This document shows, in pieces, positions 2,603 to 22,092 of a DNA stretch of 64,000 nucleotides. The position numbers were made by a program, and so were the translations under genes. The stretch lies in contig QMRC01000001.1 in assembly GCA_003649205.1 (NCBI GenBank), forward strand, positions 285,081 through 349,080, given 5' to 3'. The first letter of the stretch is position 1. Every line of letters starts with the position of its first letter. Below the pieces are notes generated by a model. That model saw only the letters and a program-made list of their open reading frames with translations, searched no databases and was not told the DNA's origin. Source of the stretch: Thermoprotei archaeon (GTDB taxonomy: Archaea; Thermoproteota; Thermoprotei; Thermoproteales; B15-G16).

Positions 2603-3832
2603 GTGAAAAATGAAACTTTTTTCAACTATTTTAACAAAAAGTGTAACACAGAAGTGTGGTCCCAAATGAGTCAAACGCAACAAGCTGGAATTCTATCAGT
2701 GATTTTGTTGGTACTATCATCATTCCTAGCGGGTGTTGGTTTTGGTATCTATGCGCCATTGATACCCATACAAGCAACAGAGTTAGGTGCACCTGAAGCT
2801 ATTGCCACGGCAACAGTCCTAGCATTACCGTCGATTCTCGCAGTACTAGTGATGCTTCCTATGGGTATACTTGCTGATAAAACTGGTAGGAGAAAGGAAA
2901 TAGTTATGATTGGACTCCTACTTGGAGCTGTATTTAATGCATTGCTAGGCATAGCTACAAGCTGGGTTGAGCTAGCTATCTATAGGGCTTTTACGGGCAT
3001 AACCTTTGCATTGATATCGATATTTCTGTCAATAGCAGTTCTCATAGCTCCTGAGAGACTACGAGGAACTGTTATAGCTATTATGGGTGGAACTATGATG
3101 CTTGGAATGGGGATTTCACAGATGTTTGCTGGAGCTGTGTTCACAGCTCTTGGAAGAAGCTACCGAGCTCTGTATTTCCTTGCAGCTGCAGTAGCTCTTG
3201 CCGCAGCAATAATACTACTACCTGTTAAAGTTCCTAGGGTTCAGCTTCCAGCTATGAAGGGTTCCGATATCCTTGAGGCTTTAAAAGCGAGAGGTGTTTA
3301 CTGGGCTGGCATGGCTATACTTGTCTACCTAGTTGGATGGAATCTCATGTACCCATCTCTACCGATAGTTTTAACCTACATCTATAAAGCACCTCCAGAG
3401 ATTTCTAGCTTAGCTCTTGGCGTTGCATCTCTCATGCTGGGCTTAGGTACGTACATTTGGGGGCCTATTATCGATAAATTAGGTGGTAGAAGGACGTTGA
3501 TACTTGCCATACTCGCATCAGCTATAACAACGTTCGTAATGTATCCTGCTCTAGGCAACATGTGGGCATACATAGTACTATTTTGGATAGTGACATTCTT
3601 CGGTGTAGTAGGTGCTCCGGGTACGAGCTATGTGGCATCAAGAAGTGTTAAACCGGAGTTGATCTCAATTGCGCTTTCGACTATCTGGATATTCACGTCA
3701 TTAGCTGGAATAATAGGTGGGTTTGTAGCAGGTGCTTCAATAGCATCGCTAGGGCTTGCAACAACAATACTCATAGCAGCCGCTATAGAACTTGTAGGGG
3801 GTATACTGATGTTTGGATTACCTAAGGTATAA
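2603..3832 (+). CDS. MFS transporter
   Basis: About 12 predicted TM segments and the loop motif GILADKTGRRK between TM2 and TM3. Real start may be the internal MSQTQQ. Confidence 0.85.
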   Translation: MKNETFFNYFNKKCNTEVWSQMSQTQQAGILSVILLVLSSFLAGVGFGIYAPLIPIQATELGAPEAIATATVLALPSILAVLVMLPMGILADKTGRRKEIVMIGLLLGAVFNALLGIATSWVELAIYRAFTGITFALISIFLSIAVLIAPERLRGTVIAIMGGTMMLGMGISQMFAGAVFTALGRSYRALYFLAAAVALAAAIILLPVKVPRVQLPAMKGSDILEALKARGVYWAGMAILVYLVGWNLMYPSLPIVLTYIYKAPPEISSLALGVASLMLGLGTYIWGPIIDKLGGRRTLILAILASAITTFVMYPALGNMWAYIVLFWIVTFFGVVGAPGTSYVASRSVKPELISIALSTIWIFTSLAGIIGGFVAGASIASLGLATTILIAAAIELVGGILMFGLPKV

Positions 3833-3867: not shown

Positions 3868-5133
3868 ATGAGTAAACAACCTATAGAGGAGTGGATGGAA
3901 AGGCATAGAAAAGAACCAGACATAGTAGTAAAGGAGAAAGCTGAGAGATTTCTAAAAGCTGTAGAGCTTAAGGAACCTGATAGAGTACCGTTAATGTTCT
4001 TTACATGTGGTCACGTATTTGCAAAGTGGTTTAAACTTTCAGAAGTATACTTCAACTACAGCAAGATGAGAGATGCTATCGTAAAGTTTGTCACTACCTT
4101 CCCTTCAGACATATTTATCGCTGCTCCTGCAGCTGAAGGCTTTGTATTGGCTGTAGCTTTTGCCGATGTTCCGCAGATAGCTCCTGTTGTTAGATTTATA
4201 ACAGGACCTATGCACGATATTTTAAAGGACAAGTGGACTAGGTGGCCTGGTAGGGAGTTAGCGGAACATCTACCGTTTCAATTTATTGGAGGAGAGTACA
4301 TGAAGCCTGAAGAGTACAAATACCTTATTGAAAATCCAGTAGAGTTCATACACAACACAATTCTACCGAGAGCTTGTGAAAATCTCTCAAAACCTGGCTC
4401 AGCACAACATGCACATACGATAGCTAAGTTAGCACTTGAAGCCATTAACTACCTAAATGCTTTAACGGAAATAAATAATACCTTACTGAAACTAGGATTC
4501 CCACCACTAGCAATAACGTTTGCATATGCACCTCTAGACTTCATAGGAGATTTTCTTAGACATCCTACAGGAGCTATGTTAGACATTAGGAGACGTCCAG
4601 ATGAGGTTAAGCAAGCTACGGAAGCTCTCATTAAGCCAATATTGCAAGTAGCGTTTATACTTAAACCTACAGGAGCTAAGTTCGCATTCATACCGTTACA
4701 CCTTAACTCAATGCTCTCTCCAAAGCTATATGATGAGTTCTATTGGCCATACCTAAAGAGAGTTATAACAGAACTCTATAGCAATGGTATAAAGTCATTT
4801 GTGTTATTTGAGGGTGATCATACACCGCATCTAGATACGATCCTAGAACTTCCAAAGGGCTGGGGCATAGGGGTATTTGAGCGTGGTGATATAAGGAAAA
4901 TCAAGGAGAAGCTGGAGGGTCACACATGTGTTGCTGGAGGTATATTACCAGGACAGTTAATAGGTTGGAGTCCTGAGAAGATAGAGGAGTACGTTAGAGA
5001 GCTTATAAAGGATCTTGCTCCTGGAGGAGGCTTCATACTAGCTCCAGGGATAGCGGAAATAGACCCAGCAATACCAGACGCGAACCTTAGAGCTCTAATA
5101 AATGCTGTTCTCAAGTACGGTGCACGTAAGTAG
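3868..5133 (+). CDS. URO-D/MtaA-superfamily corrinoid methyltransferase, paralog 2
   Basis: Collinear with the 1290-2567 product and clearly the closest of the three paralogs (SKQPIEEWMERHRKEPD..., RWPGRELAE, FIPLHLNSMLSPKLYDEFYWPYLK, LFEGDHTPHLDTILELPKGWG). Confidence 0.8.
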   Translation: MSKQPIEEWMERHRKEPDIVVKEKAERFLKAVELKEPDRVPLMFFTCGHVFAKWFKLSEVYFNYSKMRDAIVKFVTTFPSDIFIAAPAAEGFVLAVAFADVPQIAPVVRFITGPMHDILKDKWTRWPGRELAEHLPFQFIGGEYMKPEEYKYLIENPVEFIHNTILPRACENLSKPGSAQHAHTIAKLALEAINYLNALTEINNTLLKLGFPPLAITFAYAPLDFIGDFLRHPTGAMLDIRRRPDEVKQATEALIKPILQVAFILKPTGAKFAFIPLHLNSMLSPKLYDEFYWPYLKRVITELYSNGIKSFVLFEGDHTPHLDTILELPKGWGIGVFERGDIRKIKEKLEGHTCVAGGILPGQLIGWSPEKIEEYVRELIKDLAPGGGFILAPGIAEIDPAIPDANLRALINAVLKYGARK

Positions 5134-9109: not shown

Positions 9110-9221
9110 GGACCCTGAAGATGGAGTTGAAGGTGTTTGTAAGTGTTTAGTTCTCTGATCCTTTCATATTGTGAACATCTTAGCGTCTAGTGTGGGGCTA
9201 CTCTTCGGCATCCTTGAAGTG

Positions 9222-10055
9222 CTATGTTCTTTTGCTTTGTCTTGGTTTGATGAGCCATGTGTCGAGTTCTTCTATGTACTTGATCTCGTATCTCTGCTTT
9301 ACCTGGTTTATTTTCCTCTTTATCTTGCTGTAGATTCCGTCATCTCTTACTATCTTTCCGTGCTGTTCTAGGTCGAGGAATTCTCTCTCTAGGTTTTCTA
9401 TGGCTTTTTCTGCTTCTTCTGGTGTGTAGGCTCTTATGTCTAGGTCTATTTCATCTGATAGGAGGAGGAGGTATCGCTGTATGCTTGGTGGGGGGAGGTT
9501 TTCTGCTATGAGGATTACGTCTATGTCGCTCCATGGTCTCCATATACCTTTTGCTCTTGACCCTATGATGGCTGCTAGCTTGATCTTTATGCCTTTCTTC
9601 TCTAGTTCTTGAAGCCACTTAAGTACCTCCCTATAGGCTTCTCTTCCATTCTCTAGCTTTCCTATGTCTGGTGTGCAGTCGTGTTCTCTTAGCTTTAGGA
9701 ATATCTCCCTTGTTCTGTAGTACATTGTCTCTACTCTTTGTTTGTTGTAGTACTCTTCTGAGATTCCATATCTTTGTCTGGCATCGGGGTACCTGCTTGC
9801 GTAGTAGTGTATTGTGAGTTCACGTAGGAAGTTAAGTTCTTCTGGAGTTAGTTGGTATCCTCTTGCAAGTAGGTGGAGAGCATGCGTTTTCGTAGGTTTG
9901 TATCCTCTCTTTATCAAGAGAGCTTTTAGTAGGAATTCAAGAGCTTGATGGAGATGGAATACTGCGAGTTTGTAGAGTCCTCTAGTTAGGAGGATATCTG
10001 CTGCATCTAGGTGGGAGTAAGCTGATTCCACATACTCATCTACGCTTTGCATCAT
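9222..10055 (-). CDS. HEPN domain fused to minimal nucleotidyltransferase (HEPN-MNT fusion)
   Basis: N-terminal HEPN helices (AADILLTRGLYKLAVFHLHQALEFLLKALL). C-terminal GS-x10-DxD NTase motif (IGSRAKGIWRPWSDIDVILIA). Confidence 0.75.
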   Translation of the reverse strand: MMQSVDEYVESAYSHLDAADILLTRGLYKLAVFHLHQALEFLLKALLIKRGYKPTKTHALHLLARGYQLTPEELNFLRELTIHYYASRYPDARQRYGISEEYYNKQRVETMYYRTREIFLKLREHDCTPDIGKLENGREAYREVLKWLQELEKKGIKIKLAAIIGSRAKGIWRPWSDIDVILIAENLPPPSIQRYLLLLSDEIDLDIRAYTPEEAEKAIENLEREFLDLEQHGKIVRDDGIYSKIKRKINQVKQRYEIKYIEELDTWLIKPRQSKRT

Positions 10056-10160
10056 CCATCTCTAGCCCCTATCTACTTTCTCGAGGTAGCTCTAGTACCT
10101 ATCTTGAGAGGTGATCTCTTGCAGGGTTTCCCTTCTTACTACCTACCTTATCTATGTCTG

Positions 10161-10571
10161 TTAGTAGCTATGTCTTGTCTTGAAGCCTAGTTCGTCTCTA
10201 AAGCACCAGAGTCCTTCTCCGAAGTCTAGGAGTACGATGCCTAATTTACCTAGGAGTTTATCGTTTAGGAGTACAGTGCTTATGCGTGAGATATAGGGGT
10301 ATGCTGGTACTGGTCCGACAACTCTATCTTCTGTGACTACGTACACGTTGACTGGTTCAACACATCTTACTAGGTTTATGGTAGAGCCATCGGCTAGAAT
10401 GCGTTTTACGGTTATGGTGGGTGGTTTATTGCCGAGGAGTTCTCTTGCTAGTGGTTCAGGTAGCATGATCTCTGGTTCGGCACCAATGAAGCCACTGTTG
10501 GCGAGTGCGAGGGTTTCAATGCATTTACTCTCTACTTGGAGTCTTACCCTTAATCTCAGCACGTGGCTCAC
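10161..10571 (-). CDS. Retropepsin-like (clan AA) fold protein with NSG in place of the catalytic DTG/DSG
   Basis: ETLALANSGFIGAEPEIMLPEPLARELLG aligns with the ...DTGA....lp..la..LG pattern. C-terminal VLLNDKLLGKLGIVLLDF resembles the second retropepsin block. Confidence 0.35.
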   Translation of the reverse strand: MSHVLRLRVRLQVESKCIETLALANSGFIGAEPEIMLPEPLARELLGNKPPTITVKRILADGSTINLVRCVEPVNVYVVTEDRVVGPVPAYPYISRISTVLLNDKLLGKLGIVLLDFGEGLWCFRDELGFKTRHSY

Positions 10572-11178
10572 CTAATAGCTCTGGTGGTAGGATGGTGAGT
10601 ATAGCGAACTTTGGTTCGAGTACTTCGGGTGGGAGTACTGTCGCAATGAGGTTCTCCATTGAGAAGCCCCATCTGTAGTGGTTGCTGAGGTTTATCTTAA
10701 GGTTTACTTCGAGATTGTTAGTTGGTATGTACCATCCTTACCTGCACTTAGTGAGCTTGGACTTGGGTTAACCTAGTCTGCGATATTATTACTCATTAAT
10801 GAATTGGTATTGCAGGGTACATAACGTAGTGTCTTATCAGCAAGATGGTGCTCATCTGCTCTTTACAGGAAGTTTGCACTAGAACAGGGATTAGAATAAG
10901 GTAGTAGGTACTGAACGATGAGGGATATACATGGAGTTTAGACTACACATGATCTACAGAGCAGCCTTAGTACTCGATGTTCTAGGGATTTCACACTAAT
11001 AGCATACAGCAGATTACTTACAGCACACATAGTACGCAATGCAAGACACGGAACTAGTGAAACATCTGTGAAGGGATCAAAATGACCAAGAGAACAAGTC
11101 CTCTTATCCACTGGAAGATAATTGAGAGCACGTTCCTGTCATAGCTTTGAAGCTTAGGGGCCTGGTGAGTGAGAGCCA

Positions 11179-11676
11179 TTGTGGTATTCGGTCTGCAGGG
11201 TGATTGGGTTAGTTGTAGCTGTACTTATTTTGTTTTTATGTTGTATTTCTGTGGTGATTGGTGTGGGTGTTATTGAGAGGGTGAGGATTTATCTTGAGGA
11301 TGCTTGGGAGTTCTATAGGCGTGGTAGGGAGGAGCTTTTGAGAGGTCTTGAGAAAGGATATGTGTATGAGGTGAGGGATGGTGCTGAGAAGCTTTGGAAT
11401 GCTGTTGTTCAGGCTACTAATGCTCTAATTCTTCATCTCTTAGGTTTGGTTCCTGCTAGTCATTGGGAGTGGAGGAGGAAGTTGATGGAGCTTGAGGGTA
11501 GGTTTGAGGAAGTTGGTAAGCTTGGTCTCTGTGATAGGTATTGTGCGAGGGAACGTCATCTACGTGGTATGACGTTTTATGAGGGTATAGTTGATGAGGA
11601 TTTGCTTAGGTATGAGGTGCAGAAGGTTGAGAGGTATCTTAGGGATGTTGAGGATCTAATTCGTAGGTTAAGGTAG
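11179..11676 (+). CDS. PaREP1-family (HEPN-related) protein
   Basis: YLEDAWEFYRRGREELL...VRDGAEKLWNAVVQATNALILH matches the PaREP1 helical pattern. The hydrophobic N-terminal 35 aa may lie upstream of the true start. Confidence 0.6.
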   Translation: MWYSVCRVIGLVVAVLILFLCCISVVIGVGVIERVRIYLEDAWEFYRRGREELLRGLEKGYVYEVRDGAEKLWNAVVQATNALILHLLGLVPASHWEWRRKLMELEGRFEEVGKLGLCDRYCARERHLRGMTFYEGIVDEDLLRYEVQKVERYLRDVEDLIRRLR

Positions 11677-11746
11677 TACGCTGCTCCTTGACTCTTAATT
11701 GAGATCTTCTACTCTATCTGTTGAGTAGTTGTTGAGGGATTTTTCC

Positions 11747-12160
11747 CTATACGTAGGTGTGTACTTTGTATCTCTTTTCCTGGTCTTTCCATGGTTTTAG
11801 GTAGTTGAAGTAGAGGTATTCGTAGAGGTTGAGTTCATTTCTTGCCCATATTACTACGTGGTTTTTAATTATTGATATCTGGATGTGGAGTGGTAGTAGT
11901 TCAAATACTCTGAGGTCGTATTTACTGAAGTCTAGTGGTACTTCTCTCCATGCTTCCTGTATGAGCTGTATTCCTTCGTCTGGGTTTTTCCTTGTTTCTG
12001 GTACTACGAGGCATATGTCTATGTCTGATCGTGGTGTTGCTTCTTTGCGTGCATGTGAGCCGTAGAGTAGTATTGCTTCTACTTCTCTGTGTTTTTCGAG
12101 GAATTTACTGAAGGCTTCTCTAACTGTCTTGATTATTGTCTCGATTTCTTCTGTAGCCAT
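11747..12160 (-). CDS. mntA: Minimal nucleotidyltransferase antitoxin (MntA-type)
   Basis: ILLYGSHARKEATPRSDIDICLVV (GS-x9-DxD). Overlaps the upstream DUF86 gene by 28 nt. Confidence 0.8.
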   Translation of the reverse strand: MATEEIETIIKTVREAFSKFLEKHREVEAILLYGSHARKEATPRSDIDICLVVPETRKNPDEGIQLIQEAWREVPLDFSKYDLRVFELLPLHIQISIIKNHVVIWARNELNLYEYLYFNYLKPWKDQEKRYKVHTYV

Positions 12161-12573
12161 TTCTTAACTACCTCACTGAACTCTACTACGGAATTTCTTA
12201 ACTTAAGTATGCTGGTGTAGGCTAATCTATCGTCTATGCCATTGTACCTATGTACCAACACGTTCCTGAGACCATTTAGTTCACGTAGTTTTCCAAGTAG
12301 TTCATCCGTGATCAATCCTAGCTGCTTTAGGGTGTGTAGGTTTGTGTAGTCGTCTTTAACGACTTTACCCTCGTCTCTCACCATCATTGCGACAATATCC
12401 ATTATGCAGTCAGCTAGTTCCTGTACCACTTTGTACACTGCTTTCTTAGTTTTTACGTCTCTCAGAAATTCCTCTATGTTGGGTGGTATCCACTCCTTGA
12501 GTAGTGTTAGGCATTCGTGTATGAATTCCAGCTTCTCTTCGTATCTCTTTATGCGTTCGGTATCTAGTTTCAT
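12133..12573 (-). CDS. hepT: HEPN/DUF86 RNase toxin (HepT-type)
   Basis: Rx4HxY motif present (GLRNVLVHRYNGID). Size and pairing with the MNT gene are typical. Confidence 0.85.
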   Translation of the reverse strand: MKLDTERIKRYEEKLEFIHECLTLLKEWIPPNIEEFLRDVKTKKAVYKVVQELADCIMDIVAMMVRDEGKVVKDDYTNLHTLKQLGLITDELLGKLRELNGLRNVLVHRYNGIDDRLAYTSILKLRNSVVEFSEVVKKWLQKKSRQ

Positions 12574-13671
12574 GATACTTCCTCTCTGATTTCTTGGATT
12601 ATGTCTTTTGGTTCTATGTTTAGTGTTTGTTTTTGTACCATGGTTCTTATTGTCCAGTAGTGTGCTGGAAGTTGGTATGCTGTGTCTTCTCCGATCCAGT
12701 ATGTCTTACTTGGTTTCTTGTCTAGCCATTTGCTGTATAGTGGTGTTACTATGTTGTTTCTCAGCATGTAGTCCCATATTGGGTGTAGTTCGAGTTCATC
12801 TATGTTGTCTAGTGTTTGCTTTAGTTCCTGTAGTACCTGTATTGGTGGTTTCTGTTTTTCTCTGCAGTATTCCTTGATTGTTGTCTTCACTATCTCGATT
12901 ATCTTCTGAAGCCAACTGCCTATGTTCCATTTCTGTATGTGTAGTTCGTATATTGCTCTTGGGTTTCCTCCTGTTAGTTGCCAGAGTTGGTTGTGGTTTA
13001 GTGGTGTTTTTAGTTTGTTCAGTAGTTCATCATGTGCCTCTCTATCTAGGTTCCATATCTGGTACATGAGTATGTTCTTACCTTCTTCTCTCTTGAAGTG
13101 TTTTTGCTGCTGTTTGTTCGCTTGTTAGTAGGATTACGTGTACTTGACATCTGTGCTCGTGTGCTATGTCGTAGATTTCCTTGCTTAGTCCTGTTACTAG
13201 GTCTCTTATCGTTAGTCTGTACCTGTTTAGTGGTACTGTTACTTCATCGAATATGAGCACTAGTTTCCTTCCTTTGAGGTTTAGTCTCTTGGCTATGTAC
13301 TTGACGATGTTGTAGAGGTGGAGTAGTAGTTTTGCTCTATCTCCTACTAGTTCCTTGACTAGATTTTCTAGGGCCTCTACTACGCTGTCTTCGGTTGCTA
13401 TGTAGAATTCCTCTCTTACTGCTGCTTTTGGTAGGTTCATGTACGTGATCAGGATTTCTGGGTCTTGTTGTAGTGCGTGTGTTGTCGCTCTCATGAATTC
13501 CGTTTTTCCGCAGCCCCATGGTCCTGTTATTACGAGGTTTAGTGAGTGTTCTGGTTTTGTTTCTTCGCCGTACCTTATTAGCTCTAGTAGTTTCTCGTAT
13601 TCTCGATCTCTATCTACGAAATTTATGTTGAGGTCTGGGACTATGTACTTGTGTAGTTTCGTGGTTTTCAT
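12570..13671 (-). pseudogene. Arch_ATPase (PF01637-like) paralog interrupted by a frameshift
   Basis: ORF 13078-13671 carries the Walker A (GPWGCGKTEF) and stops at ...TAAKTLQERRR*. In the next frame the same DNA reads HFKREEGKNILMYQIWNLD, collinear with the intact paralog (HFLREQGKNMFTYLMWNLS). The shift maps to a T5/A5 run at 13101-13105. Confidence 0.75.
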
Positions 13672-13871
13672 TGGTTATTCGTCTATACTTTGTTCCTTTG
13701 GTGTTTATAATTCTGTTCTCTGCTGTGTTGTTTGAGGTGTTTTGTCTATGGTTCTTGTTTGTGGTGATGTTGTTGAGAGGATTGGGGTTATTGCTAGGTT
13801 TTCTGAGGTTGCTTTTTGTTGCTGTTGTCGGTTCTGTTGCTGTGAGGAGGTATTAGTTAGTTGTTGAGGCT

Positions 13872-14186
13872 ATGAACGATTCCTGTAGGCACATTGTCTC
13901 AGCTAGAGGTTGGGGTCCTGATTTCTCAGCTAAGGACTTCGTGGAGCTAGCTGTTAAGCACGGTGTTGTGTCTAGTGAATTAGCTAGGGAGATCATTATG
14001 GCTATTCGCTTGGGGAGTATAATCGTTTACAGGTACCTAGGTATTAACTATGAGGAGCTCTATAGGGGGGTTCAAAAGCTCACTACATTAGCTAGGGATT
14101 TTGAGAGGGAGGTAGTTAGCTTCCTTAGAAAGGTACTGGGTATCTCGCGAGTGAGTTATCTAGGTGTTCTCCTCTATAGTCTCTAG
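13872..14186 (+). CDS. Degenerate DUF86/HEPN remnant
   Basis: DUF86-like C-terminal half (HGVVSSELAREIIMAIRLGSIIVYRY) with the Rx4HxY site destroyed. N-terminal half missing and no partner NTase. Confidence 0.4.
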   Translation: MNDSCRHIVSARGWGPDFSAKDFVELAVKHGVVSSELAREIIMAIRLGSIIVYRYLGINYEELYRGVQKLTTLARDFEREVVSFLRKVLGISRVSYLGVLLYSL

Positions 14187-15311
14187 TACCTTTCTCGGTG
14201 TTGGTTTTTCTCCGGTTTCAAGTGCTGTCTTCAGTATCCAATAGTAGATTGGTGTCTGGAATGCGTACTCTCTACCAATCCATGGCTCTCCTCTAGGTAT
14301 CTTCGATAGCTTTCTAAATCTCTCATCGATGTTCATCACTATGTTCTCCTCTATCAACCTCCTAGATACTATGTACTCTGGTAGCTGAATACCTGGTTGA
14401 TATGGCTTTACACAATCTACACACTCAACTACTTCCCTTAGATAGTTCTCTACACTTAGATCTTGAGCTAACTTAATGAGCGGTAGTACCTTCCCTATCT
14501 TAGCACTTAGGTACCGATCTAGATTCCACCTCCATGCCCTTAACTCAGCTACTTCTCTCGGATTTCCTCCTGTTACCTTCCACACTAGCTCGTAATCTAA
14601 TGGGCACTCTAGCTTTTGGAGTAGTTGCTCTGTTGCTTGTTTACTAAGATTCCACATCAGGTACGTGAACATGTTCTTTCCCTGTTCTCTTAGGAAGTGC
14701 TGAACTGCTGTCTGATCACTAGTAAATGCTATTGGGTACAGGTACTCTAGCTCAAGTTCATCCCTTATCTCAAAGATCTTGTAGCTCAAGCTACTAACGA
14801 AGTCCCTAATGGTTACTCCATACTTCTCAAGGGATTTAGTAACCTCATCTATCAGCAATATCACTTTTGCACCTCTTACTCTGAATCTCTTTGATAGTTC
14901 TCTGAGGAATGTGTAGAGCTGTATTGGTACCTTAGCTACGTCACCTAGTACGTTGAGTACTATCTCCATACACGTCTCCACTACTCTCGATCTAAGTGGT
15001 TGAAAGACCTTACTTAGGTCCTGCTCTGTTAAGTCCATGTATATCGCTACGAAGTTCCCATAGCTGTCTAAGGCATGAGCTAGTGCTCTCGCGAACTGAG
15101 TTTTCCCACAACCCCACGGTCCTGTCACTACAAGTAGATGTTCGTAACCTCTCTCACGTATGTGCTCCTGAAGTAGTGTCTCAACTTCGTACTCTCTATT
15201 CACGAACTCTATCCCAAGATCAGGTACGCGGTACCTGTACAGTTTACTCACTACATCACGCATCCCATACCTCGTCAATGCTCTACTCACTCCCCATGCT
15301 TTACACCTCAA
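14160..15311 (-). CDS. Arch_ATPase family P-loop NTPase (intact paralog)
   Basis: Walker A GPWGCGKTQF and Walker B ILLIDEV. Conserved blocks MWNLS, GGNPRE and WIGREYAFQTPIYYW are shared with three other copies in the window. Confidence 0.8.
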   Translation of the reverse strand: MRCKAWGVSRALTRYGMRDVVSKLYRYRVPDLGIEFVNREYEVETLLQEHIRERGYEHLLVVTGPWGCGKTQFARALAHALDSYGNFVAIYMDLTEQDLSKVFQPLRSRVVETCMEIVLNVLGDVAKVPIQLYTFLRELSKRFRVRGAKVILLIDEVTKSLEKYGVTIRDFVSSLSYKIFEIRDELELEYLYPIAFTSDQTAVQHFLREQGKNMFTYLMWNLSKQATEQLLQKLECPLDYELVWKVTGGNPREVAELRAWRWNLDRYLSAKIGKVLPLIKLAQDLSVENYLREVVECVDCVKPYQPGIQLPEYIVSRRLIEENIVMNIDERFRKLSKIPRGEPWIGREYAFQTPIYYWILKTALETGEKPTPRKVLETIEENT

Positions 15312-15494
15312 TCTAGCTTAAGTACGTTGTTACCTTGATCCTCACTACATCTCCACTGTGATGTCCACTCAGTACCTAGTGCACGATCCTGTCTCAGGAT
15401 TTTTATAGGTGTGTTAGTTCTGATCTCTCGGGAGGACTCCTCGGTGAGGACCTAGTTCTCGGGCTTCGATGATCCGAGGGCCGGGCGGCTTACC

Positions 15495-16061
15495 TCACTT
15501 CTCCTCCTGTTCCTGTAGCAGATCCAGTAGTGTCACTTTCTGTGTTGTCTCCCTCTTGAGGACCCTCTCCACGAAGTGATCTCGAACCGGTTTGTAGACG
15601 TACTCAAAGAACTTCTGTGGATCCCTCAACACAGTTGTTGGAAACTTCTTCACGTACTCAACAGCCTTCTGCCACACTTCATCCCACGGTGCTATAGCCT
15701 CTACCTTAGCCCTGATCTGCCTATCAAAGTCTTCTGGTCTCTGCTCCTTACCACCCATCTCAAACCAACCACTTGGACCTACCGGTACCTCCTCACTACC
15801 TGGGCCGAAGACCTTCACCATACTCCTCCCACCACCTCTAGTCTCCTCACCAGGTATGTAGAACCTCCTACCACTCCTCGATACCTTACTCGACTGAGGA
15901 CCATAGTACTTCAACCACGCGTAGAAGATCGCCCTATTGAGTCCAAAGCTCTTAGCCTTCTGTAAATCACCTGTCAGTACGTAGTACCTCGCTGCCTGTA
16001 GCAAAGCCATAACCTCAAACCTACCAATCTTCCTCTCATCCCTAGTACTCAAGGTAATCAC
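15495..16061 (-). CDS. Hypothetical protein
   Basis: 188-aa ORF with coding-like composition between ATPase paralogs; no motif recognised. Confidence 0.45.
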   Translation of the reverse strand: MITLSTRDERKIGRFEVMALLQAARYYVLTGDLQKAKSFGLNRAIFYAWLKYYGPQSSKVSRSGRRFYIPGEETRGGGRSMVKVFGPGSEEVPVGPSGWFEMGGKEQRPEDFDRQIRAKVEAIAPWDEVWQKAVEYVKKFPTTVLRDPQKFFEYVYKPVRDHFVERVLKRETTQKVTLLDLLQEQEEK

Positions 16062-16193
16062 CCTACTTCAGTGAGATGTACGTATCTAAAGTCTTCTCCT
16101 ACATCTACTCAACGTAGTACCTCACATGTCAAAGACTGAAGCTTCACCTAATTTCGCATTCTATTTAAGTCCTCCACCTCCTCTACTCCCTTC

Positions 16194-16246
16194 AGGTGAT
16201 GAGGTTCGTTAGGACTGAACACTGATGACCGCTCGCGACCCTGATT
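16194..16246 (+). ncRNA. C/D box sRNA
   Basis: GTGATGA(16196-16202)-GGTTCGTTAGGA-CTGA-ACAC-TGATGA-CCGCTCGCGACC-CTGA(16241-16244); both guides exactly 12 nt. Confidence 0.8.
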
Positions 16247-16253
16247 TACTTCC

Positions 16254-17375
16254 TCACGTACTCACTTCCCTCAATATGGTTTCAGACGTAGGTTTCTGCT
16301 CTTTCTCAAGTATAGCCCTGAAGATGTAGTAGTAGAGAGGTACTTGCCAAGCCCATTCCCTACCAATCCACTCCTCTCTAGGCACTTCACTTAGTAAGTG
16401 ATTAGTAGGCTCTAGCGGTATGACCATGTTCTGTCTCAGCAACTCCTGCGTTAATGCTACTTCAGGTAGCTGCTGCTTAAGCTCCTCAGTAATAGGTATA
16501 GGAGCTAGAGAATCAATTTCCTCAACTACGCTCCTCAAGTACTTAAGCAACACATCACTACGCCTAATCATTGAGTAGAGTGACCAACACCTCACAATTT
16601 CCCTCTCTAACCACCTCTCTACATCCCATGCATAGACATTCCTCAATTCGTAGATCAATCTTGGATTACCACCACACAATCTCCACAGGATCTCATAATC
16701 TAGCGGGCACTTAACCTCCTCAAGTAACCTCATGAAAGCACTCTTCGATAAGTTCCACATCTCATAGATAGATAGTGTCTTACCGACTTCCCTCCTAAAG
16801 TACTGAATCAGTGACAGTTCACTAGTTAGAAGTACTGTAACAATATTCCTGAGACCAAGCTCCCTTCTCCACTCATGAATAGCCTTATCCAATGCTGAGA
16901 CGTAGTCCCTAATACTGATCCTATATCTGTCGAGAGATCTAGTAACCTCATCCATGAAGATAACCAAGTACCTACCAACTAGCTTGTACACCTCACATAG
17001 CTTCCTCAACAGAGCAAATACCTTGAGAGGAAACTTAAGCAAGTCCTCACACACCCTCTGAACTAACTCAAGGAGTAACTCCTTAACACCATACCTTGCG
17101 TAAATAGCTTGATGCAGCTCACTTTGAGTCAGATCAACATATAGGAAAACGAAGTCATTAAGCTCCTCTACAGCATACGTCACAGCTCTAGCAAATTCAG
17201 TCTTCCCACAACCCCAAGGACCATACACAACGTAATTCCAGGAAACACCCCTAAGAACCCAATCAAGAACATACCTAACCTCCCTCTCACGATCAACAAA
17301 GTAAATACCCAACCCTGGCACCACATACCTACCTAAGCAACTAACAACAACCTCAGTAACATCACCACAACACAT
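16254..17375 (-). CDS. Arch_ATPase family P-loop NTPase (paralog)
   Basis: GPWGCGKTEF, VIFMDEV, MWNLS, GGNPRL, WIGREWAWQVPLYYY. Confidence 0.8.
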   Translation of the reverse strand: MCCGDVTEVVVSCLGRYVVPGLGIYFVDREREVRYVLDWVLRGVSWNYVVYGPWGCGKTEFARAVTYAVEELNDFVFLYVDLTQSELHQAIYARYGVKELLLELVQRVCEDLLKFPLKVFALLRKLCEVYKLVGRYLVIFMDEVTRSLDRYRISIRDYVSALDKAIHEWRRELGLRNIVTVLLTSELSLIQYFRREVGKTLSIYEMWNLSKSAFMRLLEEVKCPLDYEILWRLCGGNPRLIYELRNVYAWDVERWLEREIVRCWSLYSMIRRSDVLLKYLRSVVEEIDSLAPIPITEELKQQLPEVALTQELLRQNMVIPLEPTNHLLSEVPREEWIGREWAWQVPLYYYIFRAILEKEQKPTSETILREVST

Positions 17376-17432
17376 CTAGACAGCACCAACCCAAATAAGA
17401 CAACAACAGAACTTTACCCTTACCCCCAACAA

Positions 17433-18064
17433 CTAGGAAACCTTCAACGGCTTCACAACCTCAAGAAACCTCCTAGCCTCCTTAACAGAGAAAGTACACA
17501 GCTCGTACTTAGGAGTAACCCTGTAAGCATCCATGTAAGGACCCTCCATGTGAAATCTCTGAAATCCTAGTAGCTGCAAACACTCCAACACTATCTCAAG
17601 CAGTCGACGATTAGTATTGACAAACTTCAACTTAACCCTCCTCTCAGTATAGGTCCTACTACCTCGCCTCCTCGTATAAGTATAGAACTTCAGATGTCCC
17701 TCCGCATCAAAGAAACCACGAACAAACTCTCTAGCATAATCCTTTGACCTCAAGACTAGCGACCTTAAGGCCTCTAGATCACGCCTATACCTCACAACCC
17801 ACTTACAGAAATCTAGGCTAAAGGTCACAACACAGTACACAGGTTTCTTACCAGGTTTTCCACTTGATCTAGGGGGTAATGGTACATCACGGTGCGCGCT
17901 GCAACATACTTCCTAACTATGGTCATGTAGTACTCTGCTACCTTTAGACACGTAATCAGCAATTCAACACGCTTAAGCCTAAAGTTAACATATCCATCAC
18001 CTAGCAATACACCAAGCACATAACACATATCAGGGTTTTCAGGTATGCTCACCATGCGTCCCAC
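17433..18064 (-). pseudogene. Free-standing double-motif LAGLIDADG homing endonuclease-like gene, split by a frameshift near 17825-17840
   Basis: ORF 17825-18064 has motif 1 (YVLGVLLGDGYV). ORF 17433-17840 has motif 2 (FVRGFFDAEGHLKF), followed by NRRLLEIVLECLQLLGF as in I-DmoI-type enzymes. The two ORFs overlap by 16 nt in different frames. Confidence 0.65.
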
Positions 18065-18178: not shown

Positions 18179-18748
18179 GTGCACTCTACCTTCAGGATAA
18201 GGTGTACACAGAAGAAAGCTGATGGGAGTACAGAAGTCATTGAATTAGAGGTTAGTGTAGAGGATCTGGAGAAGCCAGAAGTAAAGAAGCTACTTCAAGA
18301 CTTCTTAAGCCATTACTTGAGAGATTACAGCGGAGTCGAGATTAGAGTTGAGAAGAAAAGCTATCACACGCAACGCAAGGACTTTCACGTAGAAGCATTG
18401 AAAAAAGCAGCTGAGAGAGGTTTAGTCTTGAATTACGATGATGGAACCGTAGTGATAGATAGGGAGAACTCAAGAATTTACTTTTGGCCTCGAAACTGGT
18501 CTCAAACAACAGCTTCCAGAATGTACATTAAGTACGAAGATCTCTACATCCTATTAACCAAAGTCAAGGCTAGACTAGGATTGAGTAGAGAGATTAATTC
18601 CAGTACCATCATCACTAAAGTACTTGAAGAAGTGAAAACAAGTAGTAAGACATCAGCACTACTAAAGAGATTGCTGAAATACAGCGTAGTGAAGAGGTTA
18701 CTAGTCACACTACTACAGGAAATAGTACAGGGAAGGATTACCCTGTAA
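18179..18748 (+). CDS. Hypothetical protein, paralog of the 19824-20396 product
   Basis: Shares blocks V.DRE..RIYFWPRNWSQTT / YVDRVEGKMYVKPRGWSWTT and the C-terminal SALLKRLL....LLVTLLQEIV / RALTRLL....LLLVEFLWKVV. Confidence 0.55.
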   Translation: MHSTFRIRCTQKKADGSTEVIELEVSVEDLEKPEVKKLLQDFLSHYLRDYSGVEIRVEKKSYHTQRKDFHVEALKKAAERGLVLNYDDGTVVIDRENSRIYFWPRNWSQTTASRMYIKYEDLYILLTKVKARLGLSREINSSTIITKVLEEVKTSSKTSALLKRLLKYSVVKRLLVTLLQEIVQGRITL

Positions 18749-18788: not shown

Positions 18789-18848
18789 TGGTAGCGGGGG
18801 GTGGATTTGAACCACCGACCTCGGGGTCTCTACGGCGGTCGCGGCGGC
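18789..18848 (-). tRNA. 3' half of split initiator tRNA-Met, with 15-nt complementary leader
   Basis: Minus strand: GCCGCCGCGACCGCC GUAGAG A38 CCCCG AGGUC GGUGG UUCAAAU CCACC CCCCGCU A CCA. It supplies the anticodon-stem 3' strand, variable loop, T arm, acceptor 3' strand, discriminator and an encoded CCA. Confidence 0.8.
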
Positions 18849-18870
18849 CGAGTTTCACTCCACACTTACG

Positions 18871-18889
18871 TGCTTATAAATCTTTCTCT
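18871..18889 (-). promoter_or_regulatory. BRE/TATA promoter of the tRNA 3' half
   Basis: Minus strand AGAGAAAGATTTATAAGCA. It ends 22 nt upstream of the leader and matches 17/19 nt of the element upstream of the 5' half. Confidence 0.6.
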
Positions 18890-18953
18890 TTGCTTTCCCT
18901 CAAGAGTTTGCTTAAGTTCTCTACGTAGTTGTTCTAGGTCTTGGAGAGTTTGG

Positions 18954-19304
18954 TCAAGTACTCTTGCCGAGTTTAGTATTACACGACACGTACCATAGGG
19001 GGTGTTTGCCTTGTCTAATCTTGGAGGGTTTCCTAACGTAGCTTTTCCAGAAGTTTTCTCGTGGAATACCTAATTCCTGACTCCAGAACTCGATAGCTTC
19101 GTCTTCATTCACACCTTCCCAGATCGTTAGGCGACACTTTAGCTCTCTAGGATCAACTTCATAAAACTGCTTGAGACTATAGATGAAGAGCTTTAGTAGG
19201 AGTGGATCCGTTGATGTCAAGGCAACTTTCCTACTTCTACCTCTCTTCGACTTATCACCTTCACACCAGTAGAGCATAAGCCACTCACGCTTAGACAGTA
19301 CCAT
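18954..19304 (-). CDS. Single-motif LAGLIDADG endonuclease-like protein
   Basis: EWLMLYWCEGDKSKRG...VALTSTDPLLLKLFIYSLKQ resembles the second I-DmoI motif region as I recall it (GLYVAEGDKT...NKNKALLEIVSRWL). Confidence 0.45.
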   Translation of the reverse strand: MVLSKREWLMLYWCEGDKSKRGRSRKVALTSTDPLLLKLFIYSLKQFYEVDPRELKCRLTIWEGVNEDEAIEFWSQELGIPRENFWKSYVRKPSKIRQGKHPLWYVSCNTKLGKST

Positions 19305-19827
19305 ATCTACTCAACTCCTCACTACACCTCTTAATGAACATCTCTAGGTTACTTACCGTATGCTGTATCTCCGGTACATGGCTGTAAGGATATAGCCATC
19401 CTACTAAGGTACGAGCAGATACTAGCATTAACCGAAGAGCTTCAGGGTATGGTTTAGCAATGACCATATAGCCAAAGGCCGTAGGTTCACTGCCATTGTC
19501 ACGTAGTAAGCCCAACGCCATTAGACTTAATTTGTCATTGCTGATAGTCCTTGGGTTTCTTGACCTTAGTCTTTCAGGAAGTTTCTTATTAATTTCACGG
19601 CAGTCACATACGCCTTGGTCTATGAGCTTAAGGATGTGCAAGAGCCTCTGTGGGCGCGCATAGCGGAAGTAGGGATACTTGAGAGCTATGTTCCGTTTAT
19701 CGACTGCTTTGCAGCTACAGTAATAGTTGCAGCATGAGTAGACTCCGTCCACAAGTGCTAGCGGTGCACTGCATTTCGGACAGTATGGTACAAGAAAAGA
19801 CCTTATAACTAACTTACACAGCGTCAT
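19291..19827 (-). CDS. Zinc-ribbon plus probable wHTH protein
   Basis: N-terminal CPKC...CCNYYCSC Cys cluster. Overlaps both neighbours (ATGA overlap at 19824-19827; 14-nt overlap at 19291-19304), implying one operon. Confidence 0.5.
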   Translation of the reverse strand: MTLCKLVIRSFLVPYCPKCSAPLALVDGVYSCCNYYCSCKAVDKRNIALKYPYFRYARPQRLLHILKLIDQGVCDCREINKKLPERLRSRNPRTISNDKLSLMALGLLRDNGSEPTAFGYMVIAKPYPEALRLMLVSARTLVGWLYPYSHVPEIQHTVSNLEMFIKRCSEELSRYGTV

Positions 19828-20396
19828 AGTACATCCCTCAGCTCATTCCTAACAACCTTCCATAAAAACTCGACAAGGAGTAGCTTACTACTACTTGAGG
19901 ATAGTAGCCTTGTCAGTGCCCTAGGGCTACTAGGCATAGAGGCAAATCTCCATAACACAGTCTCTACATCTGATATGCTAGAGGCGTTGCGTAGATTCTC
20001 AACGATCTGCTTAACTGTCTCCAGCGATAATGACGCACGAGTGACAGTAGTCCAGCTCCAACCTCTAGGCTTGACGTACATCTTTCCCTCTACGCGATCT
20101 ACGTAAACTTCTCCTGCACTGAGTTGTATTACCTTTATAGCACCTCTCTTGATTTGGTTAAGTAATTTGCGCACCCTAGGATCTTCCAGTGCCTCCTTTT
20201 GTTCTCCCCCTCCTACTGGAGGCTGCACTGACGCTGTACCTAGTATACTAACGAGGATTTGCGAAATGGCGTCGACAGGACCGCGTAGGTGAACTCTGAC
20301 GCCATCCTTCTCAATGGTAACTTCCACTTCTGGCATAATCTGCACCTCTGCATGGTCACTGACGCGCAGGCTTATAAACTTTGCGCATGGTGCCAT
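19824..20396 (-). CDS. Hypothetical protein, paralog of the 18179-18748 product
   Basis: See 18179-18748. The true start may be the internal MPEVEV (about 20336). Confidence 0.55.
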   Translation of the reverse strand: MAPCAKFISLRVSDHAEVQIMPEVEVTIEKDGVRVHLRGPVDAISQILVSILGTASVQPPVGGGEQKEALEDPRVRKLLNQIKRGAIKVIQLSAGEVYVDRVEGKMYVKPRGWSWTTVTRASLSLETVKQIVENLRNASSISDVETVLWRFASMPSSPRALTRLLSSSSSKLLLVEFLWKVVRNELRDVL

Positions 20397-20603
20397 TCAT
20401 AGATAGCTGCTTAGCGCGACCTTGATAAGCGCGAGAACCTTCTTTGAATTCTACATTATGGGATCCGAACACTATGTGGCTAAGTAGCAGGACTAGTAGT
20501 GCTCCGTAAGCTACATGGATCTATATATTGTGAAGCTCGGTTAGCCAGAGAACGATATTTCACAGCATTGAGGTAGGTGAACTAATGGAAAATTAGTGGA
20601 GGA

Positions 20604-20657
20604 GCCGCCGCGACCGCCTTATGAGCCCCGCGGGATACCTGGCTTCCCCACCCCGCT
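20604..20657 (-). tRNA. 5' half of split initiator tRNA-Met (anticodon CAU), with 15-nt complementary trailer
   Basis: Minus strand: AGCGGGG UG GGGA AGCCAGGUA UCCC G CGGGG CUCAUA A GGCGGUCGCGGCGGC. It supplies the acceptor 5' strand, a complete D arm, the anticodon-stem 5' strand and the loop through A37. Confidence 0.8.
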
Positions 20658-20687: not shown

Positions 20688-20706
20688 TGTTTATAAGTCT
20701 TTCTCT
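20688..20706 (-). promoter_or_regulatory. BRE/TATA promoter of the tRNA 5' half
   Basis: Minus strand AGAGAAAGACTTATAAACA. It ends 30 nt upstream of A1. Confidence 0.6.
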
Positions 20707-20739: not shown

Positions 20740-22092
20740 CTATTTGTCTTGTTGGAGTGCTTGCTTTATTGCTTCTAGGGTCTCTGGATCTAGTAGGTTC
20801 TGTGCATACTTCAGTGCTACTGCTGCTAGCTTTCTAGCGTTGTTTCCTGTTAGTTCTAGTACTCTCTTGAATTGCCTATTTGCTGGTTTCGTTATCCCTA
20901 GTACTTGTCTCGTGTACTCGTATGCTCTTCTAACTTCTACGTACTTGCTCAGTCCTGTTATGTAGACGTGTAGGTACTTCCCCTTCTTTAGCCGTGCTCT
21001 CATGTGTTTTGCTATGAGTTTGATCGCTGTGACTAGGCTCATCTCTGTCTGTGTGTACTGTGCTATGTGTAGTAGGTCAGTACGTACTTGTGCTAGTTTC
21101 AGTACTTTTCTTGGCCATAGGTAGCTCGGGTGTGTAGCTACTGCTCTTAGCATGAGTACTAGGCCTCTGTACCTTGCTTGATCTAGGAGTACTAGACGGT
21201 CTTTCTGTATCTCGATTCTTGGTCCTAGTGTTTGCTCTAGTTTTTCTGCCAGTAGTTTACGTAGGTTGTGTGGTAGTCTCGTACTGTACTTTAGCCTTAC
21301 CTCTACTTCTCCTCTTTTGCGTTTTATGGTTTTGAGTATACCATCCCCTATGAGTAAGCCGGCTACTAGTTCCTCTGCTAGGTTCTGTGTTGTGTTTAGT
21401 GTGTGGTGCCAGAGCTGTAGTTTGTTCTCTAGTATGTGCTGTGGAGCACTGTTCTGTAATCTGTGGTCTGTACTGAAGGTTATCGTGTAGCAGGTGTCTA
21501 CTAGATTTCCTGTCCGTATGTAGTACATCAGTGTTCTTGCTTGTAGTGGTGTTCCTAGTAGTGTTGCTACGTAGGTTATGTACTGTGTATCTGATGTTGC
21601 TAGTTGTAGTGCCCCATTTCTTGTACTGAGGTCTGTTAGTAGTAGTCCTAGTAGTAGCTTACGTTGATCGTACTGGTGCTGTATACCTGTTATCTCTGTA
21701 CCTATTCTTGCCTTGACTATGAGTCTTGGTTCTGTTGGTTTTAAGACCTTTAGCTTCTTTACTCTGGTCGTTAGCTTATCTACTGAGGTACGTTCTTCTA
21801 CTCTGTAGTTCTCGATGGAGTTTAGTACCTTGTTGACTGCTATTGCTCGTAATTTGGTGAGTGTGTACCATAGTTCTGCTGGTGTAACTTCGCCTAGCTT
21901 CACCTCTGTGATCCTTCTATCCACTTCCTCTACTATGTCTCGTAGTTGTCTTAGTACATGTTTCCTTATGGTTACTTCGTGGGTGTGGGTGAGTTCTTTG
22001 TTCATGTAGTGTTCTCTGACTTCTACTCTCATGACTATGCTGTTGTTGTCTTCCTGTAGTACTTCTTCTCTTAGCTCTATTGCTGGTTTCAC
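20740..22092 (-). CDS. Large LAGLIDADG-domain protein (450 aa)
   Basis: Two motif-like segments about 100 aa apart (KLLLGLLLTDLSTRNG and ELVAGLLIGDGILKT), flanked by N- and C-terminal extensions of unknown function. Confidence 0.55.
   Translation of the reverse strand: MKPAIELREEVLQEDNNSIVMRVEVREHYMNKELTHTHEVTIRKHVLRQLRDIVEEVDRRITEVKLGEVTPAELWYTLTKLRAIAVNKVLNSIENYRVEERTSVDKLTTRVKKLKVLKPTEPRLIVKARIGTEITGIQHQYDQRKLLLGLLLTDLSTRNGALQLATSDTQYITYVATLLGTPLQARTLMYYIRTGNLVDTCYTITFSTDHRLQNSAPQHILENKLQLWHHTLNTTQNLAEELVAGLLIGDGILKTIKRKRGEVEVRLKYSTRLPHNLRKLLAEKLEQTLGPRIEIQKDRLVLLDQARYRGLVLMLRAVATHPSYLWPRKVLKLAQVRTDLLHIAQYTQTEMSLVTAIKLIAKHMRARLKKGKYLHVYITGLSKYVEVRRAYEYTRQVLGITKPANRQFKRVLELTGNNARKLAAVALKYAQNLLDPETLEAIKQALQQDK

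Follow-up and report, generated by a model that had tools for sequence, protein, structure and literature searches.

LAGLIDADG homing endonuclease genes occur in the bulge-helix-bulge (BHB) introns of archaeal rRNA genes, as exemplified by I-DmoI from the 23S rRNA gene of Desulfurococcus mobilis. In cyanobacteria, a group I intron in the tRNA-fMet gene encodes the homing endonuclease I-Ssp6803I. We know of no established driver of intron mobility in archaeal tRNA genes, and it has been debated since 2005 whether split tRNA genes are ancient two-piece relics or recent products of mobile elements. Here, we analyzed a 64-kb stretch of DNA (64,000 nucleotides, referred to as the window) from a Thermoprotei archaeon, in which the initiator tRNA (tRNA-iMet) gene is interrupted by a 1792-nt insert. 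This insert carries three open reading frames (ORFs), one of which, ORF3, is the frameshifted remnant of a LAGLIDADG-like gene. The locus is probably a decayed and expanded mobile BHB intron with an endonuclease-type gene, caught in transition to a split tRNA gene.

The element resembles the I-DmoI-type rRNA introns in being a protein-spliced intron of the BHB type, in interrupting the gene for a stable RNA, and in being almost filled by its ORF. Moreover, among solved structures the ORF3 family matches only the second LAGLIDADG domain of I-DmoI, with conservation of the acidic motif residue. It differs in its host, which is a tRNA interrupted at position 37/38 of its anticodon loop. The encoded proteins differ as well, since I-DmoI is a two-domain monomer, whereas the family protein consists of a single domain of approximately 125 to 145 aa with an additional helix-plus-strand segment (FWS..LGIP..F.K) between its third and fourth strands. 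In addition, the family falls outside the Pfam LAGLIDADG models, its likeness to I-DmoI being by motif only, and the gene in the window is frameshifted. The cyanobacterial I-Ssp6803I intron is comparable in carrying a homing endonuclease gene within an anticodon-loop intron of an initiator tRNA, but it is a bacterial, self-splicing ribozyme that encodes a PD-(D/E)XK enzyme.

Split tRNA genes have been described in Nanoarchaeum equitans, including a tRNA-iMet gene split at 37/38, and in Staphylothermus, where the tRNA-Lys halves lie 4.5 kb apart on one strand (PMC3218864). Like these genes, the locus is split at the intron position, its halves have perfectly pairing GC-rich flanks (15 bp, versus 13 bp in Staphylothermus), and promoter-like elements precede both halves. 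Unlike them, its halves are colinear with a spacing of only 1.8 kb, the intervening DNA is a recognizable ORF-bearing intron, a relative with 95% flank identity has an unsplit gene, and the splice motif is relaxed rather than the canonical helix-bulge-helix-bulge-helix (hBHBh'). A further parallel is the tRNA-Thr gene of Caldiarchaeum subterraneum, which is disrupted by a 1.8-kb recombinase element (PMC3293823). In both cases a mobile element of approximately 1.8 kb is tied to intron gain and tRNA fragmentation and is polymorphic at the population level. The Caldiarchaeum element, however, codes for a DNA recombinase, and a 5' tRNA fragment remains in duplicate, whereas the present locus has neither recombinase nor duplication and the insertion lies exactly at the splice site. 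Full-text literature searches turned up no description of a BHB intron with an ORF in tRNA genes, and none of the ORF3 family, subscription journals being outside the coverage of these searches.

The window is part of a metagenome-assembled genome (MAG) of a Thermoprotei archaeon (locus tags DRJ40_01675-01690), and the same DNA is present in ENA ERZ1742239 NODE_2 (485 kb). The tRNA-iMet 5' half (positions 1-38, with the end CTCATAA) is located on the minus strand at 20619..20657; it begins with AGCGGGG, ends with GGGGCTCATAA, and has the same sequence as the 5' portion of the uninterrupted tRNA of a relative, L060. It is directly followed by the 5' arm of a GC-rich 15-bp helix (20604..20618, minus strand), which reads GGCGGTCGCGGCGGC as RNA. 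The 3' arm (GCCGCCGCGACCGCC as RNA) lies on the same strand at 18834..18848 and is separated by GUAGAGA (18827..18833, minus strand), the 3' strand of the splice motif, from the 3' half. The latter, CCCCGAGGTCGGTGGTTCAAATCCACCCCCCGCTACCA, covers positions 39-76 with an encoded CCA (18789..18826, minus strand); over its first 16 nt it agrees fully with the end of L060. On the plus strand, the 15-mer GGCGGTCGCGGCGGC is thus found at 18834-18848 and its reverse complement at 20604-20618, and no other match occurs in the window with two mismatches allowed (chance expectation, 0.00). A repeat search returned the arms as a 30-nt inverted repeat pair with exactly 1755 nt in between. All coordinates of the original prediction, which placed 1755 bp between two complementary 15-mers inside a tRNA break, could therefore be confirmed, as could its three same-strand ORFs of 190, 178, and 116 aa with overlapping stops and starts, which are on the minus strand.

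When the halves are joined, ARAGORN recognizes a 77-nt tRNA-Met(CAT). The A1:U72 pair and the three G:C pairs at 29-31/39-41, adjoining the anticodon loop, identify it as an initiator tRNA. The total insert spans 1792 nt (18827-20618) between A37/A38 and C39, and its removal restores the cloverleaf, with the intron at the canonical position 37/38 as judged from the joined exons and the L060 junction CTCATAA|CCCCG. Without splicing, no tRNA is detected in the window by ARAGORN and no Rfam family matches at the gathering score; an Rfam search by E value yielded a sub-threshold tmRNA-like match on the 3' half as its sole result. The perfect pairing of the 15-bp arms corresponds to the complementary flanks expected of split tRNA halves, while the halves themselves are colinear on one strand, 1.8 kb apart, and not at separate loci. 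An assembly artifact was considered and rejected. The identical insert is present in the ENA/NCBI 485-kb contig and in an independent Logan contig from SRR6823441 (L002), which is 100% identical to window positions 20647..18801 and spans the whole insert, and the JGI gene calls on a 372-kb contig show the same truncated C terminus of ORF3. The ends of the L002 contig lie inside both tRNA halves, which suggests a branching of the assembly graph at these ends and hence the coexistence of allelic variants of the locus in the SRR6823441 sample.

Related loci were collected by exact look-up, from one genome per species (9 loci), and from metagenomes (41 loci). The retrieval pattern was derived from a 5-sequence alignment, as a 15-sequence alignment was too diverse, and the loci were scanned with a profile of the spliced tRNA-iMet. 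In L060 (GCA_964647155.1), the upstream flank is syntenic with that of the window and 94.8% identical at the nucleotide level over 2385 bp, sharing the glycosyltransferase gene, the oxidoreductase gene, a 450/507-aa ORF, and a promoter-like 19-mer. Here, the tRNA-iMet gene reads GGGGCTCATAA-CCCCGAGGTCGGTGGT to the end of the contig and is uninterrupted, representing an empty site. The original prediction had placed the insert at the canonical intron site and had pointed to related genomes as a possible source of an uninterrupted tRNA-iMet allele; the unbroken GGGGCTCATAA|CCCCGAGGTCGGTGGT junction of L060 bears out the former and supplies the latter.

The closest relative with an insert, L017 (JGI Ga0190369_1009758), contains one intact 141-aa ORF with 71% amino acid identity to ORF3 in an insert of approximately 616 nt and shares 93.5% identity with the window over the 5' half and its arm. 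The helix arms covary between the two loci: GGCGGTCGCGGCGGC and GCCGCCGCGACCGCC in the window correspond to GGCGGCCGCGGCGGT and ACCGCCGCGGCCGCC in L017, and the arms differ from those of L017 and L058 at two positions, each of which is compensated in the partner arm. L058 and L059 are L017-like, with an ORF broken by a nonsense codon and a deletion, and the ORF of L016 is likewise broken. To judge from these sequences, the ORF decayed independently in L058/L059 and in L016. The intron gene therefore displays a presence/absence polymorphism, with an empty site in L060, an intact ORF in L017, and decayed ORFs in the window, L058/L059, and L016, which is the pattern expected of a homing-endonuclease element.

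ORF3 itself occupies 18866..19304 on the minus strand, of which the annotated 116-aa part covers 18954-19304. An extra C in the C-run at 18998-19002 shifts the frame and truncates the protein. Translation in the next frame goes on with PYGTCRVILNSARVLDQ..., in agreement with the family C terminus, up to the original stop codon TAA at 18866-18868, and PYGTCRVILNSARVLDQTLQDLEQL... in that frame corresponds to the last conserved strand and helix of the family. At the same site, L017 has the intact reading GKHPYGTCRVIF.... As annotated, ORF3 thus lacks its last strand and helix and is not an intact ORF. It has no match in Pfam or NCBIfam, a chance-level match only in PHROGs, and none in PADLOC. 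While a word-indexed homolog search with the 116-aa ORF returned two matches only, an exhaustive HMMER scan retrieved 970 cluster representatives at an E value of ≤0.001, revealing an unannotated family with the core LYWcEGxK...(T/N)SDP...FWS..LgIP..F.K...hG.cR. Within this core, Glu15 and Gly16 do not vary, and Tyr12 and Lys18 hardly do.

The likeness of LYWCEGDKS to the second LAGLIDADG motif of I-DmoI, on which the original prediction was built, was evaluated by profile searches. When a profile of 30 short family members was compared with all PDB sequences, the top seven matches were I-DmoI (best E value, 0.005). A 64-member profile improved this to an E value of 4.6e-4, with the next match other than I-DmoI at 1.5, and hhalign of the family against I-DmoI gave an E value of 1.2e-4 with a probability of 55%. 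Family positions 8-52 align to residues 102-144 of the second LAGLIDADG domain of I-DmoI (approximately 45 residues), with LYWCEGxK placed on LYVAEGDKT (113-121). Glu15 hereby falls on Glu117 in chain numbering, which we take to be the catalytic glutamate. The family alignment thus contains a LAGLIDADG-type motif helix with a conserved acidic residue at its end. In Pfam, LAGLIDADG_3 is the sole family matched by more than one member. As far as these alignments go, the relation between the family and I-DmoI is real and specific at the level of the motif, and it is at this level alone that LAGLIDADG character is seen. The predicted resemblance was therefore sustained by the profile search, but not by curated profiles or by structure comparison, as detailed below.

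The three-gene arrangement of the insert turned out not to be the original unit, as L017 carries a single ORF and the genes for the 190-aa and 178-aa proteins are later additions. In a blastn comparison, L017 positions 65-126 correspond to the 5' half and arm, positions 251-761 correspond to the window from the start of ORF3 onward, and the part in between has no match. A closer alignment pairs the L017 spacer and its TATATAG box with window positions 20521-20590, and homology resumes approximately 20 nt before the ORF3 start codon. The intervening segment of approximately 1.2 kb (19325..20510 on the minus strand, boundaries approximate) contains ORF1 and ORF2, has no counterpart in L017, and therefore represents a secondary insertion between the promoter-like box and ORF3. 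A repeat search disclosed no convincing direct repeats or target-site duplications flanking it.

Both of these genes are ORFans. ORF1 (19824..20396, minus strand) encodes at most 190 aa and has itself as its sole database match. Its start is probably the ATG at 20336, which gives the 170-aa NCBI call and is preceded by a Shine-Dalgarno-like GAGGTG and by TTTATAA. At an E value of ≤0.01, ORF1 has no family match in Pfam, NCBIfam, or PHROGs, and PADLOC, PDB, and phage searches gave none either. It has, though, a paralog in the window (28% identity; E value, 2e-9), a 189-aa ORFan at 18179-18748 on the plus strand. Since this paralog lies directly outside the tRNA 3' half on the opposite strand, the insert cargo may stem from a local inverted duplication. 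ORF2 (19291..19827, minus strand; 178 aa) has no paralog within the window, no homolog other than itself, and no match at an E value of ≤0.01 in Pfam, NCBIfam, or PHROGs, nor any in PADLOC, PDB, or phage searches. Its earlier designation as a zinc-ribbon/winged-helix-turn-helix protein found no library match and goes back to the pattern of its N-terminal Cys cluster, CPKC...CC...CxC.

In other archaea, the ORF3 family is recurrently associated with tRNA-iMet genes. At 15 of 52 related loci, from diverse archaea, the ORF is enclosed by a tRNA-iMet 5' half (model positions 1-41) and 3' half (41-79) on the same strand, and the homolog is the sole ORF in the 37/38 intron; at two more, the 5' half is followed by the end of the contig. 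Among the loci with an ORF in the intron are those of a Micrarchaeota MAG (L016), of a Hodarchaeota MAG (L009), of an unclassified archaeon (L008), and of GCA_054017035.1 (L003), the protein of the last having 53% identity. Of these ORF-bearing introns, many have a length of 402-415 nt and a textbook hBHBh' motif. In compact introns of 402-412 nt (L008, L024, L026, L030, and L046), the ORF ends on the UGA contained in UGAG, the strand paired with the anticodon-loop CUCA, and this stop codon lies 3 nt before the intron end; a Shine-Dalgarno-like GAGG is found inside the 5' helix arm, so coding and splicing signals overlap.

In a second arrangement, found at 11 of the 52 loci (including Bathyarchaeota L010 and L011), the ORF is located 70-120 nt downstream of a complete tRNA-iMet/Met(CAT) gene with a short intron. 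Heimdallarchaeota L013 was assigned the same arrangement by inspection. These loci recall the collaborative homing described in phage systems, in which a free-standing endonuclease gene acts together with an ORF-less intron (PMC3984707). The ORF sits just downstream of tRNA-iMet and a short intron interrupts the presumed target, and such a pair of free-standing gene and short intron is the predicted precursor of an ORF-containing mobile intron. A further likeness is the Saccharibacteria homolog, which directly succeeds a tRNA-fMet-like gene carrying a group I intron. The phage cases differ in that they concern group I introns in protein-coding genes, whereas here BHB introns interrupt a cellular tRNA gene and both the target and its cleavage are presumed. 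After the downstream ORF, a partial or degenerate tRNA copy follows in L005-L007, L010, L011, L013, L018, L023, and L029; the copy of L010 covers model positions 9-79 with a mutated anticodon loop, and that of L013 is a perfect 3'-terminal repeat of approximately 30 nt.

The nearest family members are archaeal proteins of 125-145 aa. Most of the 3302 relatives from the profile search are proteins of approximately 220 aa from bacteria of the candidate phyla radiation (CPR) with an added N-terminal helix-turn-helix (HTH) domain. In two bacterial MAGs, L012 and L014 (the latter from Saccharibacteria), the region 2650-3460 holds a homolog right after a tRNA-fMet-like gene with a group I intron in its anticodon loop, and another tRNA-Met(CAT) gene follows the homolog. 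The L014 intron matches Rfam Intron_gpI with 57 bits (2676-2898). Distant homologs with 29-38% identity in L044, L045, and L051-L055 lie approximately 20-100 nt from tRNA genes (Met, Trp, and Arg). The whole ORF3 family may accordingly be linked to tRNA genes.

It is quite possible, though we stop just short of calling it probable, that these loci represent an undescribed class of mobile BHB introns that targets the initiator-tRNA anticodon loop across many archaeal phyla and is driven by a small single-domain LAGLIDADG-like endonuclease. CPR bacteria would hold free-standing relatives beside group-I-interrupted tRNA-fMet genes, and decay plus expansion would offer a direct route to split tRNA genes. 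If this is true, the locus and its relatives preserve every stage, namely, the empty site, the free-standing gene with a short intron, the compact ORF-intron, the promoter-bearing intron, and the split gene with foreign cargo. For one and the same gene, this makes a testable series of an uninterrupted allele, a one-gene intron of the endonuclease type, and a 1.8-kb insert with promoter-like elements for each half. The allele series favors the direction from intron to split gene and names a candidate enzyme. It would also add tRNA genes to the targets of endonuclease-bearing archaeal introns, which were earlier known from rRNA genes. The analysis further defines a large unannotated family, numbering approximately 1000 representatives at 50% identity, that in archaea as well as in CPR bacteria is tied to tRNA genes.

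How the two halves are expressed bears on whether the window still harbors an intron. Archaeal TATA boxes are centered approximately 26-27 nt upstream of the start site. A promoter-like 19-mer, consisting of a purine stretch resembling a B recognition element and a TATA box, is present in two copies on the minus strand. Copy 1 (AGAGAAAGACTTATAAACA; 20688..20706) lies approximately 30 nt upstream of the tRNA 5' end and also precedes the uninterrupted tRNA in L060. In copy 2 (AGAGAAAGATTTATAAGCA; 18871..18889), which overlaps the end of the repaired ORF3, the TATA box ends 26 nt upstream of the 3' arm. The common motif AGAGAAAGAYTTATAARCA has two exact matches in the window, both on the minus strand and one before each half, and a third site with three mismatches (chance expectation, 0.14). 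Copy 1 predicts a short 5' leader, and copy 2 predicts a start 2-3 nt before the 3' arm. Pyrimidine- or T-rich tracts follow the 5' arm in the window, L017, and L058; in the window this is just a T4 run at 20589..20592 (minus strand), 12 nt after the helix arm, which could act as a weak terminator of the 5' half. A TATA-like box, CAATATATAG (20521..20530, minus strand), aligns with the promoter-like box before the single ORF in L017. Given the 19-mer before each half and the T-rich tract after the 5' arm, we infer three putative transcription units, one for each tRNA half and one for the ORF operon, and the near-identical promoter-like elements suggest expression as a split tRNA.

Alternatively, the locus could still produce one long precursor of approximately 1.9 kb including the three ORFs, which would make it a giant cis-intron rather than a split tRNA. 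The colinearity of the halves on the same strand at a distance of only 1.8 kb speaks for this view, as do the compact relatives, which are clearly cis-introns with no room for promoters. The putative terminator behind the 5' arm amounts to just four T residues, and transcription running on from the ORF operon would enter the 3' half. On the other hand, the element before the 3' arm matches the tRNA promoter 19-mer at 17 of 19 positions, stands at the right distance, and has no other such site in the window. TATA-like boxes are kept at the place equivalent to copy 2, on the ORF stop codon, in L017 and L058, and for Staphylothermus, where 4.5 kb separates the halves on one strand, the published interpretation is separate transcription (PMC3218864). 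We regard a single long precursor as possible, if somewhat doubtful.

Under the favored explanation, a mobile intron on its way to a split gene, the original cargo would have been one small LAGLIDADG-like gene, presumed to encode a homing endonuclease. The enzyme, presumably a homodimer since the family protein is single-domain, would cut the intron-less tRNA-iMet gene at the palindromic anticodon-stem DNA, and double-strand-break repair would then copy the intron in. After fixation, the endonuclease gene would decay. In the window, ORF3 carries the frameshift, and the two ORFan genes came in with approximately 1.2 kb of DNA between the promoter-like box of the intron and ORF3. In the window lineage, each half would be transcribed separately, the half transcripts would anneal via the 15-bp helix, the splicing endonuclease would cut at the relaxed BHB, and tRNA ligase would join the halves. 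The proposal that an endonuclease-bearing insert at the intron site split this gene thus stands in its core, supported by the site and the empty allele, although the endonuclease-like gene is no longer alive in the window and, of the three genes, two were acquired later as cargo.

Several observations weigh against this explanation. Regarding ORF3, the hhalign probability of the match to I-DmoI is just 38-55%, over approximately 35 columns, and hhalign indicates no similarity of the family to I-CreI. Pfam LAGLIDADG_3 is matched by 2 of 29 members with a best E value of 0.015, below the threshold, and no curated LAGLIDADG profile in Pfam, NCBIfam, or PHROGs reaches its threshold for ORF3 or its repaired form; the Pfam check envisaged for the 116-aa protein was thus negative. 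Regarding the empty site, L060 ends 16 nt into the 3' exon, and its comparison with the window fits either gain of the insert here or precise loss in L060. The splice motif of the window and L017 has two of four central-helix pairs Watson-Crick in the 3-4-3 register, and its minimum free energy (MFE) structure contains 1-nt bulges and is not a canonical BHB. Finally, the promoter and terminator calls are sequence resemblances only, with a T run of just 4 nt.

The first group of these points raises the question of whether the ORF family encodes a DNA endonuclease at all. The insert could be intron-derived and associated with tRNA-iMet, with a product that instead binds DNA or RNA and acts on tRNA genes or their transcripts, such as a regulator, a maturase-like factor, or another kind of tRNA-linked selfish gene, the intron being spread by another route. 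Besides the missing match to a curated nuclease profile, structure comparison is compatible with this idea: the repaired 145-aa ORF3 gives a confident AlphaFold model (pLDDT, 94; pTM, 0.85), and a Foldseek search with this model against PDB and BFVD retrieved no LAGLIDADG structure, leaving the fold expected from the original prediction unconfirmed. Most of the 3302 relatives, the HTH-bearing CPR proteins, are annotated as hypothetical proteins or regulators, and the distant bacterial members are located beside various tRNA genes, not inside them. Against it, the sole PDB match is a homing endonuclease, aligned at its catalytic motif, and the family keeps E-G-x-K. The series of empty site, intact ORF, and decayed ORFs is as in endonuclease-driven elements. 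Furthermore, the layout in which the ORF fills the intron mirrors that of archaeal rRNA introns encoding LAGLIDADG enzymes. A non-endonuclease role is unlikely on this evidence.

The irregular splice motif could instead mean that the tRNA is dead. In L026, L008, L016, and L046, the motif is a canonical hBHBh', with a helix of CUCA (positions 32-35) and UGAG and with bulges UAA and AUA, ACA, or GAA, whereas the window and L017 have the 3' strand GUAGAGA in place of UGAG and a 3-nt bulge. Insertion together with a degraded motif might have abolished function, leaving another tRNA-iMet copy to serve the cell. This would accord with the noncanonical MFE structure and the decayed endonuclease-like ORF, and tRNA-iMet copies were looked at within the window only. 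A pseudogene is nevertheless quite improbable: the exons are 100% identical to the L060 allele despite a 5% divergence of the flank, the helix arms pair perfectly and show covariation with the L017 and L058 arms, and the promoter-like elements are kept. Since the identical GUAGAGA is retained in L017 even though the DNA of the ORF region is only 71.7% identical, the relaxed motif appears to be tolerated. Splicing endonucleases of the (alpha-beta)2 and epsilon2 types are reported to be able to cleave noncanonical introns (PMC5829648).

Integration of a virus or plasmid into the tRNA gene by an integrase, a scenario put forward for other interrupted archaeal tRNA genes, or primordial tRNA halves with unrelated genes in between, can be set aside as exceedingly improbable even though mobile DNA classically integrates into tRNA genes, the Caldiarchaeum tRNA-Thr gene is disrupted by a 1.8-kb recombinase element (PMC3293823), and the neighborhood holds other LAGLIDADG-like genes and ORFans, as the Pfam, NCBIfam, and PHROGs scans detected no integrase or recombinase (integrase-mediated integration being rejected on this ground and for lack of att repeats), the insert is bounded by inverted complementary arms rather than direct att repeats, the insertion point is the exact 37/38 splice site, and relatives carry a single-ORF version and an empty site.

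Some of the relatives show additional tRNA pieces. Two features stand out in L003 (about 420-490 and 4907-4968) and L009 (2909-2994). L003 has a further 3'-half-like tRNA piece behind a GC-rich arm (GGGGCGGCGGGGGGG-TAGAGA-CCCGG...), and in both loci the tRNA-iMet 5' half contains additional sequence in the D-loop region, probably a second intron.

In the window itself, a second LAGLIDADG gene is present at 17433-18064 on the minus strand, approximately 725 nt beyond the tRNA 3' end. It consists of two overlapping ORFs, one of 79 aa with LGVLLGDGY and one of 135 aa with FFDAEGH that matches Pfam LAGLIDADG_3 (E value, 1e-5), and appears to be a two-motif endonuclease gene broken by a frameshift. 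Immediately upstream of the tRNA promoter, a 450-aa ORF (20740-22092, minus strand; 507 aa in its L060 counterpart) contains the LAGLIDADG-looking motifs LLGLLLTDLS and LVAGLLIGDGIL and has no significant profile match. In hhalign, the ORF3 family gave no signal with the LAGLIDADG_3 ORF or with the 450-aa ORF. The region 9200-17400 is dense in archaeal ATPase (PF01637/AAA_16) genes and HEPN/nucleotidyltransferase pairs, and because this cluster adjoins the locus, the neighborhood can be described as variable and defense-like. Farther away, at 40476-42899, the window encodes tmcA, the tRNA(Met) cytidine acetyltransferase.

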